A DNA stretch of 64,000 bases from Nitrospirota bacterium (GTDB taxonomy: Bacteria; Nitrospirota; UBA9217): contig CAVWHO010000021.1 of assembly GCA_963754875.1 (NCBI GenBank), positions 1 to 64,000 of the forward strand, written 5' to 3'. Shown piece after piece: positions 18,307 to 24,614 of the stretch. The stretch's first letter is position 1. Every line of letters starts with the position of its first letter. The notes under the pieces were generated by a model. That model was not told the origin of the DNA. It saw nothing but the letters and a program-made list of their open reading frames with translations, and ran no database searches. Position numbers and translations under genes: made by a program.

Positions 18307-18513
18307 CTATTCAGAACTCTTCTTCAGACAGCTTCATCTACTTAATACTTCCGAAGCACATTATCGTGCGTTAACGACGAACGACTCCGTTAACGTGGCC
18401 ATCCAATTACGAATGATGTCACCTTATCTTCTTACGGCACAGTAAAACGCACTGGACTGACACACATGACAGCAAATTGTGATGAATGTAAAGTGTAAAG
18501 TTACAATTTGAAG

Positions 18514-18542
18514 TTGACACTGTTCAAACGCTGTACTATTAT
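18514..18542 (+). promoter_or_regulatory. Sigma-70 promoter of the propeller gene with an FNR-like TTGA-N6-TCAA box over the -35
   Basis: TTGACA (18514-18519), 17 bp, TATTAT (18537-18542); TTGACACTGTTCAA at 18514-18527. Confidence 0.6.
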
Positions 18543-18738
18543 AACTCTGTCAATAAATTCATGGGAATTAGGCCTTAAAAATATATGTACTTATGTTCAT
18601 TATTCCCCGTCTTGGCGGAGAAGGAGGTGGACAGAAGAAGGTCAAAAAACATTTTTTATTCAGTTGCCAGGTAGTCGAAACGTGTGGGTCAGGGAGCACC
18701 TGTCGTGCTCAACTTCAAATTACCTAAGGGGAGGAACT

Positions 18739-19881
18739 ATGAGTTTCATGAAAAAAAATGTTTTGGTCGGGTTGGTTGTTCTGAGTGTCTTTGCGCTGTT
18801 CCTGAGCTTGTCCCTGCGTCCTGCAGTTTATGCTGCATCTGAGACCGTCGTCGAAGCAAAAGTCGTGAAAGAGGCCAAACCCGTGACGTTCGACGGGAGA
18901 GCGTATATTGCTGGCCACGGCGGACATCTGGCAATCCTCGACTTAAGGACAATGAAGTCACCGTCAGACGTTGAGAGTGACAGGATCGTCCTCACCGAGG
19001 CCGGCTCCGAAATGGAGGGCAAGGTCGCGGGCATCAGCTTTGAACAAGCCAAAAAGTCAGGCGGTTCCCACGGACAGACCCTCATGATGGAAAAGGGGCA
19101 TAAAGTCCTTGTCGCCGGCACGCTTGCCGGGAACGTGTACAAGGTTGAGATCGATAAGAACGGCAGGGCCATGAAAAAGGAAGGGCCCTTTAAGGTCGGC
19201 GAGAAATTCTGCGGCGCCATCACCGGTCCGGATGGCAACGTCTATTTCGAAGACATGACCGATGGAAACGTCTATGTGTGGAACCCGGAAAAGCTCAAGC
19301 TGGTGGAAAAAATGCCGGCTGGTATGGCCGTGTGCGGCATTCAGTGGACCAAGAACGACCAAAAAGCATATATTAGCGACATGCCGGCGGGCAAGGTGTA
19401 TGTCTATGACTGGAAAACCAAGAAGAAGATTAAGGAAATATCGAGCCCGGAAATGACCTTCATCCACCAGATCCGCATGACGCCTGACGGCAAATACCTT
19501 TGGGTAAGCGCTCCGAATGAATTCGAGCTGAATCCGTCCGGTACGGCCGGTACCGCCAGCGTACTCAAGGGCGGAACCAAGGCGCACCAGGTGATCATCA
19601 TCAGCACGGAGACGGACTCCATCGTGAAGCGCATCGTGCTCCCGAGCAACCTCAGCCCGCATGACTTCGCGTTCACGTCGAACGGGTACGTTCTTCTTGC
19701 ATCCAGATCGTACGGCAGCGACGACAGCTTGGTGGCGGTCATGAATATGAAAAATGACAACATCGTCGAAGAAATATCCGTGTGCGCATCATGCCATAAT
19801 CCTAATGGAATAAAGGTCGCGATCGATTCGGGATCCCCTCTACTCTGCGGCATTACTGTCGATTGGCTGAATAAGAAATAA
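18739..19881 (+). CDS. Secreted YncE-like beta-propeller with one c-type haem motif (CASCH)
   Basis: GGAGG RBS; Sec signal peptide ending AVYA; blade motifs (GPDGNVY, TPDGKYLWV); CxxCH near the C-terminus; 380 aa. Confidence 0.82.
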   Translation: MSFMKKNVLVGLVVLSVFALFLSLSLRPAVYAASETVVEAKVVKEAKPVTFDGRAYIAGHGGHLAILDLRTMKSPSDVESDRIVLTEAGSEMEGKVAGISFEQAKKSGGSHGQTLMMEKGHKVLVAGTLAGNVYKVEIDKNGRAMKKEGPFKVGEKFCGAITGPDGNVYFEDMTDGNVYVWNPEKLKLVEKMPAGMAVCGIQWTKNDQKAYISDMPAGKVYVYDWKTKKKIKEISSPEMTFIHQIRMTPDGKYLWVSAPNEFELNPSGTAGTASVLKGGTKAHQVIIISTETDSIVKRIVLPSNLSPHDFAFTSNGYVLLASRSYGSDDSLVAVMNMKNDNIVEEISVCASCHNPNGIKVAIDSGSPLLCGITVDWLNKK

Positions 19882-19898: not shown

Positions 19899-19926
19899 CC
19901 GGAGGGTGGCGGCCTCGCCCTCCGGC
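19899..19926 (+). terminator. Stem-loop after the propeller gene (terminator or mRNA stabiliser)
   Basis: CCGGAGGG...CCCTCCGG followed by a pyrimidine-rich tract. Confidence 0.6.
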
Positions 19927-20010: not shown

Positions 20011-21207
20011 ATGAACGTTCCTTACGTCGCTCTGAAGAACCTGAAGAGAAAGCTGACGAGGACATGGCTTTTGTTCGCTATCGTCGCCGTCGTATCGTGC
20101 ACCTTATTTACAGCCACCCTCTTTCTGAAGAGCATAAACAACGCGCTTAAGATCGGTACCTACCGCCTCGGCGCCGATATACTCGTAGTCCCTGCGAGCG
20201 ATGAAGCCAAGGCCAAGTCCGCGCTCCTCTCAGGTGAGCCGACCCAGTTTCTGATGGACCGGTCGGTGCTCGATCGCGTCAGACATGTCGAGGGGGTGAA
20301 AAGCGCCACGCCCCAGCTCTTTATCAAGCCGACAAGCTTTACTTGTTGTTTCAACGTCGACGTGTTCCTTGTAGCCTTCGATCCTGAAACGGATTTCACG
20401 GTAAGGCCCTGGCTCGAGAAAAACCTCAACCGGAAACTCGGGACTAACGAGATCATCACCGGCAGGGCCGTCCCCGTTATCGTGGGGGACATGATCCCCT
20501 TCTTCGGAACCAGTTTCAGGGTCGCAGGGACCATGGAACCCACCGGCATGGACTTTTTCGACCGGGCGGTTTTCATGAGCCTGGACGCAGCCTATAAAAT
20601 GGCCGAGGATTCCAAAACCAAGGCGCTCAAGCCCATCGATATCGGGAGGGACAAGATATCAACGGTCCTCGTCCAGGTGAATGACGATATTACACCGGAC
20701 CGGGTCGCCGTCAGAATAGAATATGCCATCAGCGGGGTAAAGGCCCTGGTGTCCGACAAGGTCATCAGCACGGTGAGAAATCAGCTCTCCGGTCTTATTC
20801 GCGCGATAATCATCATCAGCATCGTCCTGTGGTTTATCGTCCTCCTGATCATGGCCTTCGCGTTTTATATGATCGTAAACGAACGGCGCCGGGAAATCGG
20901 CCTTCTTCGGGCGATGGGTGCGAGCAAAAAACATATTTCCGCAATCCTTCTGTCCGAGGCATCGCTGCTGTCGGTGGGGGGGGGCGCAACCGGTGTCATT
21001 CTGGGTTTCGGATTGCTCATGAGCTCTAAAAACCTCATGTTGCACTATTTAAAACTTCCATATCTGTTCCCTTCGCCCGCGGATTTGACCGTTCTGATCG
21101 CCGGCGCGATCGTTTTCTCCCTTGCCACCGGTCTGCTGTCCGCCTTCTTGCCGTCCCTTGCCGTTTTAAATATGGAACCGTATGAAGCCATAAGGAGGGA
21201 AGAATAA
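20011..21207 (+). CDS. FtsX/MacB-type ABC permease with a periplasmic Cys-Cys motif
   Basis: RLGADILVVP, SFTCCFN, NERRREIGLLRAMGA, EPYEAIR. Confidence 0.9.
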   Translation: MNVPYVALKNLKRKLTRTWLLFAIVAVVSCTLFTATLFLKSINNALKIGTYRLGADILVVPASDEAKAKSALLSGEPTQFLMDRSVLDRVRHVEGVKSATPQLFIKPTSFTCCFNVDVFLVAFDPETDFTVRPWLEKNLNRKLGTNEIITGRAVPVIVGDMIPFFGTSFRVAGTMEPTGMDFFDRAVFMSLDAAYKMAEDSKTKALKPIDIGRDKISTVLVQVNDDITPDRVAVRIEYAISGVKALVSDKVISTVRNQLSGLIRAIIIISIVLWFIVLLIMAFAFYMIVNERRREIGLLRAMGASKKHISAILLSEASLLSVGGGATGVILGFGLLMSSKNLMLHYLKLPYLFPSPADLTVLIAGAIVFSLATGLLSAFLPSLAVLNMEPYEAIRREE

Positions 21208-21824
21208 TGCCGTTGAAGATGTCCATAATCTTGATTGCCGTCGCGTTGCTCACCGCATGCTCTCAGGATAACGAAAGGCCCTCTGTCCAGGTCGCCCCGC
21301 AAAAATCCGATATCCAAGTGCTCAGGGAACAAGTCGCAAGCAATCCCCGCGACACCGAAGCATTATTTCACCTCGCGGATCTCTACGACCGGGCCAATAT
21401 GTACCCGGAGGAGATCGACGTATTCAATAAAATCATCGCCCTCAAGAAAGTTGTCGCCCTCAAACCGAAAGAAATCGGATACGCCTACGAGCAGCTTGGC
21501 ACGGCATACAACAGGCTCGGCAAGTATCGGGAGGCGGTAGAATCCTTTCTGAAGGCCGGGGAATATTCCCCCAAGAACCCGGTGATTTACAATAATCTTG
21601 CAGCGTCATACGGCATGATCGGCAAAACAAATGAGCAAATCGCCGCGCTCAATAAAGCCGTCTCCTTACGTCCGCGTTACGCTACGGCCCGATATAATCT
21701 GGGCATCGTATTGCTCAAAAAGGGTCGGCGCGCAGAGGCACTGAAGCAGTACAGCGAACTCCAAAAATTCGATGAAGGGACTGCGCAAGACCTTAAGAAA
21801 GAAATAGATACAAAGGGGAAATGA
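21207..21824 (+). CDS. TPR-repeat lipoprotein
   Basis: LLTAC lipobox; TPR units (AYEQLGTAY, IYNNLAASY, ARYNLGIVL). Confidence 0.88.
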   Translation: MPLKMSIILIAVALLTACSQDNERPSVQVAPQKSDIQVLREQVASNPRDTEALFHLADLYDRANMYPEEIDVFNKIIALKKVVALKPKEIGYAYEQLGTAYNRLGKYREAVESFLKAGEYSPKNPVIYNNLAASYGMIGKTNEQIAALNKAVSLRPRYATARYNLGIVLLKKGRRAEALKQYSELQKFDEGTAQDLKKEIDTKGK

Positions 21825-22036
21825 AGCGACGTTGCTGCTGAAAGAGCCACCGGAGATCATCAGCGGTCCAAGGCATTGCCCTCCGACTCCCGGAGTAGTT
21901 TGCCCGCGGCCACAGTTCAAAACCTGCAATTTACGGAATGGTGCCGGGCATCAGGTTTCTTGCCGTTGTCGACATTTTGATCGTGCTGATTGAGGTAAAC
22001 GCATCGTCGAGATCGCCTCGAAAGAAAGGGATTCCA
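21821..22036 (+). pseudogene. Degenerate remnant of a Cys-containing membrane protein (DUF4418-like)
   Basis: ATG overlaps the TPR stop; across frames it reads GVVCPRPQFKTCN/YGMVPGIRFLAVVDILIVLI, like the GxC..xC..P+TM C-terminus of DUF4418, which typically lies beside such ABC genes. Confidence 0.45.
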
Positions 22037-22699
22037 TTGATTGAATTGAAGTCGTTGTCGAAAAGCTACCGGGTCTCGGGGAATGTTATCAAAGCGGTAC
22101 AACCCCTTGACCTCACCATTTCCCGCGGAGAATTCGTTTCCATCGTGGGCCACTCCGGGAGCGGCAAAAGTACGTTTCTCAGCCTCGTCGGCGGAATCGC
22201 ACGTCCCGACACCGGAACCGTAAGCATCGACGGTGCAAATATTTGGGGATTTAACGACAAGGGGCTCTCCAAGCTCAGGAATGAAAAATTCGGGTTCGTG
22301 TACCAGTTTGCCAGCCTTATCCCCACCCTTACGGCGACGGAAAATGTCCTTCTCCCGACTGTTTTCGGCGGCCGCAAAACAGCGAAAGACGCTGAAAACC
22401 TCCTCACGTTCGTTGGGCTCGGCGATAAGACGGGCCGATACCCATCGGAGCTGAGCGGAGGCGAACAGCAACGGGTAGCCATTGCCAGGGCATTTATTAA
22501 CGATCCCCAGATCATTCTTGCCGATGAGCCCACCGGTGATCTCGACGAAGAGACGGAAGCTGAAATCATGACCTTTTTCGAGAAGGTCAACCGTGAGAAG
22601 AACGTCACCATGATCATGGTGACCCACAGCTCCGAGATCGCCCTCCGCGCCACATCTCGAATGCGGATGAAGCACGGGGCATTGGAAAAACTCAACTGA
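22037..22699 (+). CDS. ABC ATP-binding protein (LolD/MacB type)
   Basis: TTG start after GAAAGGG; GHSGSGKST, LSGGEQQRVAIARA, ILADEPTGDLD. Confidence 0.93.
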   Translation: MIELKSLSKSYRVSGNVIKAVQPLDLTISRGEFVSIVGHSGSGKSTFLSLVGGIARPDTGTVSIDGANIWGFNDKGLSKLRNEKFGFVYQFASLIPTLTATENVLLPTVFGGRKTAKDAENLLTFVGLGDKTGRYPSELSGGEQQRVAIARAFINDPQIILADEPTGDLDEETEAEIMTFFEKVNREKNVTMIMVTHSSEIALRATSRMRMKHGALEKLN

Positions 22700-22815: not shown

Positions 22816-23523
22816 TTATTTTTTCTTCTCGTCTCCGTAAAGATAATTGTATTCGGCCGGATGATGGTGTTTGAGTTGTTCCGTTGACATCTTCCCGGTG
22901 AGCCACATCCAGTTCATGGGAAACACTTCGGAGCGAAGGTGCTCGTTATAGAAGTGGAAGATCAGGATGAACACAATTGCCAGGAGCGCTTCATCGCTAT
23001 GCATGACAAAGATCACGTCCCAGATCCACTGTAGCGACCATGTGGGGAACAGCGACGATACCGTAACCGGAAAAGCAAGGAAGAACCCGGATGCACCGAT
23101 GATAAACATTCCCCAGTAGACCGCCCAGTAATCGAACTTCTGCATATAGTTAAATTTTCCAAAATACGGTTTCTCTTTCCTGAAGCCGAAGAAGTACATG
23201 AAATTGTGAAACAGGTCAACAACGTCCTTCGGCATGGGAACGAGCGTAGGTCGCATCCCGCCTTTGCGCAACTGGTTGATGAGGTAGAACTGGTGATACA
23301 CGAAATCGAGCAGCATGGTGATGCCAGCTATGCGATGGATGATCCCTGCCGATTTAGCGCCGCCCCAGAACGAAATCCAAGCACTCGCCGGTTCCTGATA
23401 TGCGTATTTGAGCCCCCATCCAGTGAAGGACAGAATAAGAAACGTCGTGAACATAATAACATGCTGAATCCTCGCGGAGAAATCGAACCTCTCGATTTCA
23501 GCAGGTATGGTTTTATTATTCAT
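22816..23523 (-). CDS. cbcB: Di-haem cytochrome b (FdnI-like, CbcB-like) quinol oxidoreductase subunit
   Basis: RIQH, IIHRIAG, GKFNYMQKFDYWAVYWG, MHSDEALLAIVFILIFHFYNEH, HHPAEY; 4 TM segments. Confidence 0.82.
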   Translation of the reverse strand: MNNKTIPAEIERFDFSARIQHVIMFTTFLILSFTGWGLKYAYQEPASAWISFWGGAKSAGIIHRIAGITMLLDFVYHQFYLINQLRKGGMRPTLVPMPKDVVDLFHNFMYFFGFRKEKPYFGKFNYMQKFDYWAVYWGMFIIGASGFFLAFPVTVSSLFPTWSLQWIWDVIFVMHSDEALLAIVFILIFHFYNEHLRSEVFPMNWMWLTGKMSTEQLKHHHPAEYNYLYGDEKKK

Positions 23524-24415
23524 GGCTACCCCCTTTCTTGAACAAGCGGTCGCGAATGTCCGCGTAGATATCGAGTAGAACGTGAACGCAAATGAACAGG
23601 AATACACTCACCGTGAGAATGATCAACGTGATCTCGGTAAAATGCGCGATGGGATGCGGCGGCTTGTGCGTGATGGCGGCTACAAATTTGGAAGTGGCCC
23701 CGCTGTGGCATTTCCCGCACGTTGCAATCTTGTTCGTCCCGAAAACGGGTGACGAAGGATCTTTGACGTTCTTGATATCATGCGCTCCGTGGCAGTCCGC
23801 ACATGAAGGTGCACCGCTGTGGCCTAACTTTAATTTTCTTCCATGAAAGCTCTCTTTATATCGTTCCATGACATCCGGACTGAGTCCATATTTTGCCACC
23901 ATCATCTTCTCTTCATGGCAGACGCCGCAAGTCTGTACGATATTGAAGTGATTGACTGCGGACTCTTTGCTGGTTTTTGGCTTAATGTAATGGGGGGAAC
24001 CGTGACAGCTCGTGCAGACAGGGCCATCGGAGGACTTTTGCACCATAACGTTCTGACCATGCACGCTTGTCTTGTACTCCTCATAAATATCGGGATGGCA
24101 GCTAACACAGGCTGCCTGCGCCAAAGGGTCGATCTTGCTTTTTGACGTGAGTAAATTCGCCAGCGTCTGCACGGCCTTGTCAGGTTTCACTCCGGACAGT
24201 CCCTGGTGCTGGGCTCCTTTTAATACCATATGGCACATGACACAGTCGAATGAGCCGTGAACGGATTTTGAGAACTTTTCCTGGCTTACATTGGTGTCTC
24301 CTTCCATTGAACCGTGGCAACCGAGACATGTCGCCGCATCAGAAGCCGCACCGGCTGCGGGCACCACAACTAGGCTGCACAACAGCAACACTACAATGTT
24401 CATCCAATTCCTCAT
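23516..24415 (-). CDS. cbcA: Heptahaem cytochrome c with C-terminal membrane anchor (CbcA-like)
   Basis: Signal peptide; 7 CxxCH (CLGCH, CVMCH, CVSCH, CTSCH, CGVCH, CADCH, CGKCH); S(V/F)HG distal His motifs; C-terminal TM ending HVLLD. Confidence 0.82.
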   Translation of the reverse strand: MRNWMNIVVLLLCSLVVVPAAGAASDAATCLGCHGSMEGDTNVSQEKFSKSVHGSFDCVMCHMVLKGAQHQGLSGVKPDKAVQTLANLLTSKSKIDPLAQAACVSCHPDIYEEYKTSVHGQNVMVQKSSDGPVCTSCHGSPHYIKPKTSKESAVNHFNIVQTCGVCHEEKMMVAKYGLSPDVMERYKESFHGRKLKLGHSGAPSCADCHGAHDIKNVKDPSSPVFGTNKIATCGKCHSGATSKFVAAITHKPPHPIAHFTEITLIILTVSVFLFICVHVLLDIYADIRDRLFKKGGSHE

Positions 24416-24614
24416 ACTCTCTCCTTTCACAATATTTTTAATATTTTGAGAAAACTGCAAAGCTGCACACAATGTTGGTCAAGCGAAAATACTAAAGTGA
24501 GTAGGTGTCGGCCAAGTAGTAATCTGGCCATTATTCCGGCAATAGCAGGCATAACTGTCAAAGTCAATGATACTATTGAAATTTGATTATGTATCTCGAT
24601 CTCTGCAAGATTAC

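Follow-up and report, generated by a model that had tools for sequence, protein, structure and literature searches.

The window, a stretch of 64,000 nucleotides from the genome of a Nitrospirota bacterium, encodes a member of a real and uncharacterised family of secreted beta-propellers in which a ring of three His and three Cys is combined with a single CxxCH motif. The best reading is that this family works like the copper-cluster propellers NosZ and thiocyanate dehydrogenase but is neither of them, as conserved soft ligands at the blade starts occur together with copper chaperone and ABC genes. The window protein is probably a periplasmic copper-haem oxidoreductase, with a copper-thiolate centre that the ring and both Met loops would bind at one mouth of the channel. 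Sequence, conservation, co-variation, operon structure and distribution were read directly, the fold was predicted, and we infer from them the haem, the copper, the roles of the ligands, the maturation route and the catalysis.

The open reading frame at 18739-19881 on the forward strand (380 aa) is preceded by a ribosome-binding site and begins with a Sec-type signal peptide, and the motifs named in the original prediction (the ring strands, the GHGGH loop, two DM loops and CASCH) were all recovered in place:

18739..19881, + strand: propeller gene, encoding a secreted six-bladed beta-propeller of 380 aa with a His3Cys3 ring and one CxxCH
18739..18834, + strand: predicted Sec signal peptide (residues 1-32), judged by eye from KK, a hydrophobic stretch and AVYA/A; twin arginine absent
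18913..18927, + strand: GHGGH loop; His63 (18925-18927), which tracks CxxCH, is a candidate sixth haem ligand
19069..19071, + strand: His111, ring; 119/120 best matches, Asp in some distant members
19210..19212, + strand: Cys158, ring; 120/120 best matches, Cys in 119/119 of subfamily B
19255..19257, + strand: Met173, ring-face loop; 119/120 best matches, Met in 119/119 of subfamily B
19333..19335, + strand: Cys199, ring; 120/120 best matches, His in subfamily B
19381..19383, + strand: Met215, ring-face loop; 120/120 best matches, retained in haem-less relatives
19465..19467, + strand: His243, ring; 120/120 best matches, Arg in subfamily B
19660..19662, + strand: His308, ring; 120/120 best matches, 119/119 in subfamily B
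19783..19797, + strand: CASCH, likely haem c attachment motif; 183/183 close relatives, 119/119 of subfamily B
19846..19848, + strand: Cys370, ring, closing strand; 120/120 best matches, 119/119 in subfamily B

By residue number, the ring strands are SHGQTL (110), FCGAIT (157), VCGIQW (198), IHQIRM (242), PHDFAF (307), and LCGITV (369), and the further motifs are GHGGH (59), EDMTDG (171), SDMPAG (213), and CASCH (349). An AlphaFold2 model of the mature protein, built from 150 sequences (pLDDT 93, pTM 0.92), places His111, Cys158, Cys199, His243, His308, and Cys370 where six blades begin, each residue on its blade's first strand or immediately ahead of it, and CASCH in the linker helix leading to the closing strand. 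The top fold matches are six-bladed propellers of 8-19% identity, a likeness in fold only (e.g., nidogen, Z 24.7, rmsd 2.9, 255 aligned residues, 11% identity), and Foldseek and VIA-align searches with the model returned fold-level matches with no haem or copper propeller prominent among them. The model and the six-bladed matches agree with each other and with the blade number and ring register proposed at the outset. Because propeller topology places them there, the ring, the GHGGH loop, the Asp-Met loops, and the haem motif would share one face of the propeller. Six-bladed lactonases, PAL and regucalcins are also among the fold matches, and with the weak SGL/lactonase Pfam matches they would suit a hydrolase or lyase whose ring holds a metal that is redox-inactive or other than copper (Zn, Ni, Fe), the haem being a sensor or accessory. 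Cys/His rings are well suited to Zn. However, the likeness to these enzymes at 8-19% identity concerns the fold only, and the Met loops together with three separate copper-carrier families (see below) point to Cu(I), which makes a hydrolase or lyase unlikely.

A search at an E-value of 0.001 found 555 homologues. Among the best 120 of these, C158, C199, H243, H308, C370, C349, C352, H353, and M215 are present in 120/120, H111 and M173 in 119/120, and H60 and H63 in 119/119, and the second-shell residues Arg323, Asp309, and Glu261 match the ring in invariance. Poor conservation, which the original prediction had named as an outcome that would refute it, was not what we found: the pattern H-C-C-H-H-C is kept in 182 of the 183 relatives with at least 50% identity, and CxxCH in all 183. 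Below 50% identity (n = 74), a set that takes in unrelated YncE-like propellers, the ring pattern occurs in 15 and CxxCH in 38. Blade-start His alone is not diagnostic because the unrelated YncE-like propellers often start their blades with His too; at the level of sequence, it is the three ring Cys and their invariance that mark the family. One relative (P0126) has an additional cytochrome c domain within the propeller. Five others (P0122, P0123, P0130, P0143, and P0272) have a flexible tail ending in Gly-Cys that resembles a carrier arm, and in P0127 the propeller (residues 1495-1820) forms part of an archaeal surface protein of 2470 aa that has a PGF-pre-PGF domain.

The ring and the haem motif vary separately among the more distant branches. 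Subfamily B (652 matches) aligns to the window protein's subfamily A with an hhalign probability of 99.7%, has a predicted fold identical in type, and has no family match in Pfam, NCBIfam, or PDB sequence searches. Its ring reads H-C-H-R-H-C, accompanied by Met, the His63 equivalent, and CxxCH in 119/119 sequences, so that Cys199 is replaced by His throughout and Cys158 and Cys370 are unchanged. In distant members, His111 is replaced by Asp and Cys158 by His. A haem-less branch, sampled as eight complete genes from nine metagenome loci plus four proteins, retains H-C-C-H-H-C, both Met, and Arg323 in 12/12, and CxxCH and His63 are absent, while a degenerate branch retains CxxCH and His63 and has lost half of the ring. 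Because these three branches separate them, the ring forms one module and CxxCH with His63 another. The proposed site, a His3Cys3 ring beside a c-haem, thus holds for the conserved ring and not for its tie to the haem, as the 12 haem-less relatives keep the ring; likewise, the GHGGH loop is present, although in the haem-less and degenerate branches its second His follows CxxCH and not the ring. His63 is therefore the likely sixth haem ligand, and the haem would accordingly be an electron relay. The protein likely carries haem c at CASCH, as expected from its export, its CxxCH, and the cytochrome c assembly genes of the genome.

The same branches bear on whether the Cys merely form structural disulfides, in a simple mono-haem or binding protein with no second metal site, a case that the original prediction had recognised as fatal to its proposal. 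The protein is secreted and blade-start His is common in ordinary YncE-like propellers, both of which would be compatible with such a protein, but the three ring Cys cannot all pair, in the haem-less relatives as well, and the ring outlives the haem motif. Moreover, a disulfide partner cannot be replaced by His, so the exchange of Cys199 in subfamily B, with Cys158 and Cys370 staying, fits a metal ligand. Given this exchange and the haem-less relatives that keep the whole ring, structural disulfides are very improbable.

The propeller gene is preceded by putative regulatory elements and followed by genes of a MacB-type ABC system:

18496..18511, no strand: palindrome TAAANTT-NN-AANTTTA, likely operator, separated from the downstream -35 box by two bases
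18514..18542, + strand: sigma-70-type promoter (TTGACA, 17-base spacer, TATTAT); -35 conserved in relatives
18621..18629, + strand: Shine-Dalgarno-like AAGGAGGTG within the leader, not followed by a start codon; conserved in relatives
20011..21207, + strand: MacB/FtsX-type ABC permease (Pfam MacB_PCD, FtsX) with Cys112-Cys113 (20344-20349) in the periplasmic domain
21207..21824, + strand: TPR lipoprotein; 62/67 subfamily A loci
21923..22036, + strand: DUF4418 gene remnant (3' end); tblastn 45% identity, E 5e-7
22037..22699, + strand: ABC ATPase of LolD/MacB type, likely TTG start; 61/67 loci

The palindrome seed occurs in 50 of 73 upstream regions and in 0 of 219 shuffles, the seed having been taken from the same set, and it recurs independently in 11 of 12 subfamily B loci. 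No enrichment of FNR, CRP, Rex, or strict sigma-54 boxes was found in the propeller upstream regions, and a regulon scan of the genome with the palindrome gave no clear theme. A 13-haem lipoprotein gene of the window genome (C13:41395-43185) has the same palindrome and TTGAC upstream (C13:43233) and, going by these shared elements, is a possible co-regulated redox partner of the propeller. The AAGGAGGTG element is found in 60 of 73 upstream regions (shuffled mean 1.5), with an ATG behind it at 3 of 63 sites. Across the genome, 16 of 36 AAGGAGGTG sites likewise have no start codon, and the element may be a general mRNA-stabilising device. Between the propeller and permease genes, a GC-rich inverted repeat (19899-19925, identified by eye) is followed by a T-rich stretch and could keep the helper genes at a lower level.

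Among subfamily A loci (67 of 82 were counted, leaving out 15 with less than 3.5 kb downstream), the permease and the TPR lipoprotein each follow the propeller gene in 62, the ATPase does so in 61, and NosL-family and DUF4418 genes are present in 24 and 14. The same permease type is present in 12/12 subfamily B loci; the TPR lipoprotein was not seen in subfamily B operons. The Cys-Cys pair of the permease is invariant (18/18 and, in a wider count, 66/66). At the seven haem-less loci that reach the permease (L118-L123 and L125, e.g., L122:8935-8940), the Cys-Cys site is in every case an in-frame TGA-TGY with a conserved hairpin just downstream, a selenocysteine signature, and the TGA-Cys MacB-type permease is a probable new selenoprotein family. 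If so, it would be a transporter selenoprotein that the accessible part of a 2026 review does not name. In the part available of a study of an unrelated MetI-type system, CC/CU motifs were read as heavy-metal contacts (Haft and Gwadz, 10.1101/2022.07.06.499078). No substrate-specific neighbour gene is conserved among the 82 propeller loci, and NosD-like proteins are absent from their frequent neighbours. A 7-haem cytochrome and an FdnI-like cytochrome b (22816-24472, - strand) are convergent with the operon and occur in 18/82 loci; a functional link to this pair was rejected as local.

Copper is indicated by the carrier genes that accompany the propeller. In subfamily A, the NosL genes counted at 24 of 67 loci lie within 4.5 kb downstream and have the CxxCxM motif, a count that excludes overlapping open reading frames without the motif (raw count 30); CxxCxM is described as the clade II NosL motif in the accessible part of PMC6530538. 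PCuAC is encoded upstream in 10 of 12 subfamily B loci, all five of those tested exceeding the Pfam cut-off, and a cupredoxin-fold gene, in which the usual type 1 Cys is absent, accompanies 8 of 9 haem-less loci. As NosL, PCuAC, and cupredoxin-fold genes have joined the operons of different lineages independently, the originally proposed soft-metal site (Cu, Ni, or Zn) can be narrowed, with the gene context favouring copper over Ni or Zn.

In the window operon, the NosL-like gene of relatives is absent, and DUF4418 is gone except for its remnant. A close relative preserves a decaying NosL remnant (L003:11139-11234), in which a TGA at the first Cys of the motif is followed by a deletion. Elsewhere, the window genome encodes NosL, PCuAC, and the cytochrome c assembly genes. 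It also has two further propeller genes. A close paralogue (C16:170844-171953; L002) with the full ring and CxxCH has no permease; its neighbours on the two sides comprise two CRP/FNR-type genes, a gene for a CBS protein, and an insertion sequence. The other (C2:41125-42894) is a divergent member, a lipoprotein that carries an Ig-like domain together with a CX6CH motif, and its cluster encodes porins, a YtkA-like protein, and a MacB permease that bears Cys. A separate module of the window genome (C10:279538-289578; L083-L085) comprises two NosL genes, a small membrane protein, a MacB permease, an ATPase, and FtrD-like and thioredoxin-like proteins, and this metal-handling module recurs beside PCuAC in genome G013. 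No NrfA match was found in the window genome, and a link to NrfA was dropped for this reason.

Of 191 genomes from the host phylum Nitrospirota, 44 encode subfamily A, and DsrA is over the cut-off in 41 of these 44 and a split gene in the other 3. Within the Dsr-bearing host family, 38 of the 46 genomes examined carry subfamily A or B. Full-length subfamily B occurs in 2 of the 26 genomes that have A and in 12 of the 20 that lack it (these 20 are among 24 A-negative genomes in all, and kin genomes are not independent). This near-exclusion suggests that the two subfamilies, which have the same permease and upstream palindrome, are interchangeable in function. By record names, relatives also occur in archaea, Acidobacteriota, and deltaproteobacteria. 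Both subfamilies are rare in the phylum of G191 (A in 0/300 and B in 5/300 genomes); a role in core sulfate reduction was rejected on these counts and on the presence of DsrA in propeller-negative genomes. Among 64 genomes, nosZ matches were found in 3 and clade III nosZ in none, the latter search having a working control (9/401). Three propeller operons were counted in the closed genome G013 (stop codons interrupt one A-type copy), which also encodes PCuAC and has two genes for NosL. The only COX1-family gene there carries the HLWVEG motif and is a cNorB; CuA, multicopper oxidase/NirK, cupredoxin, NosZ, and clade III NosZ had no match in this genome. Genome G012 (96% complete) has the propeller and neither NosL nor PCuAC.

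These distributions also bear on the possibility that the propeller is not the client of the ABC system but its soluble metal-handling subunit, which captures, stores, or reduces copper and hands it on, with the haem as a one-electron relay. NosD and the iron-uptake protein FetP/p19 are the proteins to which such a subunit is likened. Nearly every propeller copy precedes a permease, the divergent third member is a lipoprotein in an uptake-like cluster of porin, YtkA, and ABC genes, and a COX1-family gene is present in 59 of 64 genomes; in the one genus that has neither propeller, three of the four genomes show just a long match of qNor size. However, the operon is also retained in G013 and in G157 (100% complete), where there is no CuA, multicopper oxidase, cupredoxin, or NosZ for it to serve, paralogues each tend to bring their own permease, and the invariance of Arg323, Asp309, and Glu261 suits a catalyst. 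A metal-handling subunit is the chief rival reading, though a clearly less likely one.

Comparison with known families is in line with the original prediction, in which no characterised enzyme of this architecture was recognised: no characterised match was found in Pfam, NCBIfam, PDB, or the literature covered. Pfam, NCBIfam, and PDB sequence searches with the window protein gave generic propeller matches below the cut-off, marginal SGL and MRJP scores excepted, and the best two Atlas clusters were the propeller family itself under automatic names. Scores of 20.9 against a cut-off of 400 bits (NF052280) and 43.8 against 287.3 bits (TIGR03866) place the protein outside the YncE/PQQ-associated families. 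A literature search limited to papers free of subscription, which the original clade III NosZ paper is not, found no description of the family, no family model or structure of it was found either, and three supplementary files of the Sulfobium paper gave no match to guessed tags and terms, although the proteome table may be in another file. YncE/YVTN, cytochrome cd1 (NirS/NirN/NirF), and hydrazine synthase propellers are distant matches below the cut-off and the source of the automatic names, but they have seven or eight blades and none has a His3Cys3 ring with a CxxCH in the closing linker.

The family resembles NosZ of clades I and II in being a secreted propeller with soft-metal ligands at the blade starts and in having an ABC machine and a NosL-family chaperone in the operon. 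In NosZ, seven His in the middle of the seven-bladed propeller hold CuZ, and NosDFY passes Cu(I) from NosL to the enzyme (from the accessible part of PMC13685413). In contrast, the window protein has six blades with His3Cys3 and Met and a built-in CxxCH, it ends 10 residues past Cys370 with no Pfam match to the C-terminal CuA domain of NosZ, and its operon consists of a MacB-type permease, TPR protein, and ATPase with no NosD, unlike nosDFYL. The clade III NosZ model (NF052460), which has true matches in other Nitrospirota, scores the window protein at 38.5 against a cut-off of 700 bits, with an hhalign probability of 99.2%. In this alignment, H111, C199, and H243 fall on His of the clade III model matches (three of five aligned blades), bearing out the proposed NosZ analogy in register, while Cys158 falls on Asp and His308 is one residue off a His. 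Clade III NosZ has a cupredoxin domain that the window protein lacks. The clade III cluster is reported to include a MacB-type transporter (in the accessible part of PMC13685413), but a profile of the propeller-operon permease matched nothing near clade III nosZ at the eight loci examined. Loci L161-L163 encode clade III NosZ-like propeller-cupredoxin proteins (408-464 bits) that are missing several conserved His and lie beside multihaem genes.

A PDB profile search gave a weak match (E 2e-7) to entry 8q9x, which we take to be thiocyanate dehydrogenase. Thiocyanate dehydrogenase is a Tat-exported enzyme of aerobic sulfur oxidisers with a His-based tricopper site and no haem, whereas the window protein has no twin-arginine motif and six blades rather than seven, and does not belong with it. 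The copper site of MccA, a sulfite reductase that combines haem c and copper, is ligated by Cys. Judging from the title of its paper, MccA is similar to the proposed enzyme in having haem c with a copper site, but it is an octahaem protein of NrfA-related fold with no propeller. According to the accessible part of PMC6504805, thiocyanate dehydrogenase is a copper-dependent seven-bladed propeller whose flanking copper-handling genes vary by lineage.

As a copper-haem oxidoreductase, the propeller protein would be exported by Sec and haem c would be attached at CASCH, with His353 and His63 as ligands, so that the haem would relay electrons to the cytochrome pool rather than form the catalytic site. 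NosL, PCuAC, or the cupredoxin-fold carrier would bring Cu(I), and the MacB-type motor would load it via its Cys-Cys (or Sec-Cys) pair, in the manner of NosDFY-NosL with NosZ. Counted against this reading are the loss of NosL and DUF4418 in the window operon, the lack of NosL and PCuAC in G012, the Arg at one subfamily B ring position, the paralogues that have lost half the ring, the lack of a conserved substrate-specific neighbour, and the absence of the permease at the eight clade III nosZ loci.

Such an oxidoreductase would most likely act on a small inorganic compound of sulfur or nitrogen. The Dsr-bearing hosts, YeeE-like genes beside four loci, and two pentahaem genes resembling ExtKL/MccSep beside one locus lean towards sulfur. 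The NosL genes, the CuZ-like register, and the NO reductase (cNorB) without nosZ in G013 lean towards nitrogen. A sulfur species ranks first, short of an even chance, followed by N2O, then by some other substrate, and lastly by nitrite or NO. The accessible part of PMC13510729 does not mention a propeller.

NosZ and thiocyanate dehydrogenase each brought a new cofactor and a new step of the nitrogen or sulfur cycle, and the propeller family is new relative to these copper-cluster propellers in its ligand set, integral haem motif, and loading machine. The protein is small and soluble, so that its metal content and activity are directly testable. Tentatively, the ring could be a copper-thiolate cluster new to biology, wired by haem and loaded by a Cys-Cys/Sec-Cys MacB system, in an unrecognised respiratory enzyme of anaerobes that acts as an N2O reductase or in periplasmic sulfur conversion. 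If it is an N2O reductase, its cofactor would be unrelated to CuZ, in hosts that have NO reductase but mostly no nosZ; if it is a sulfur enzyme, it would supply a missing step of periplasmic sulfur conversion.
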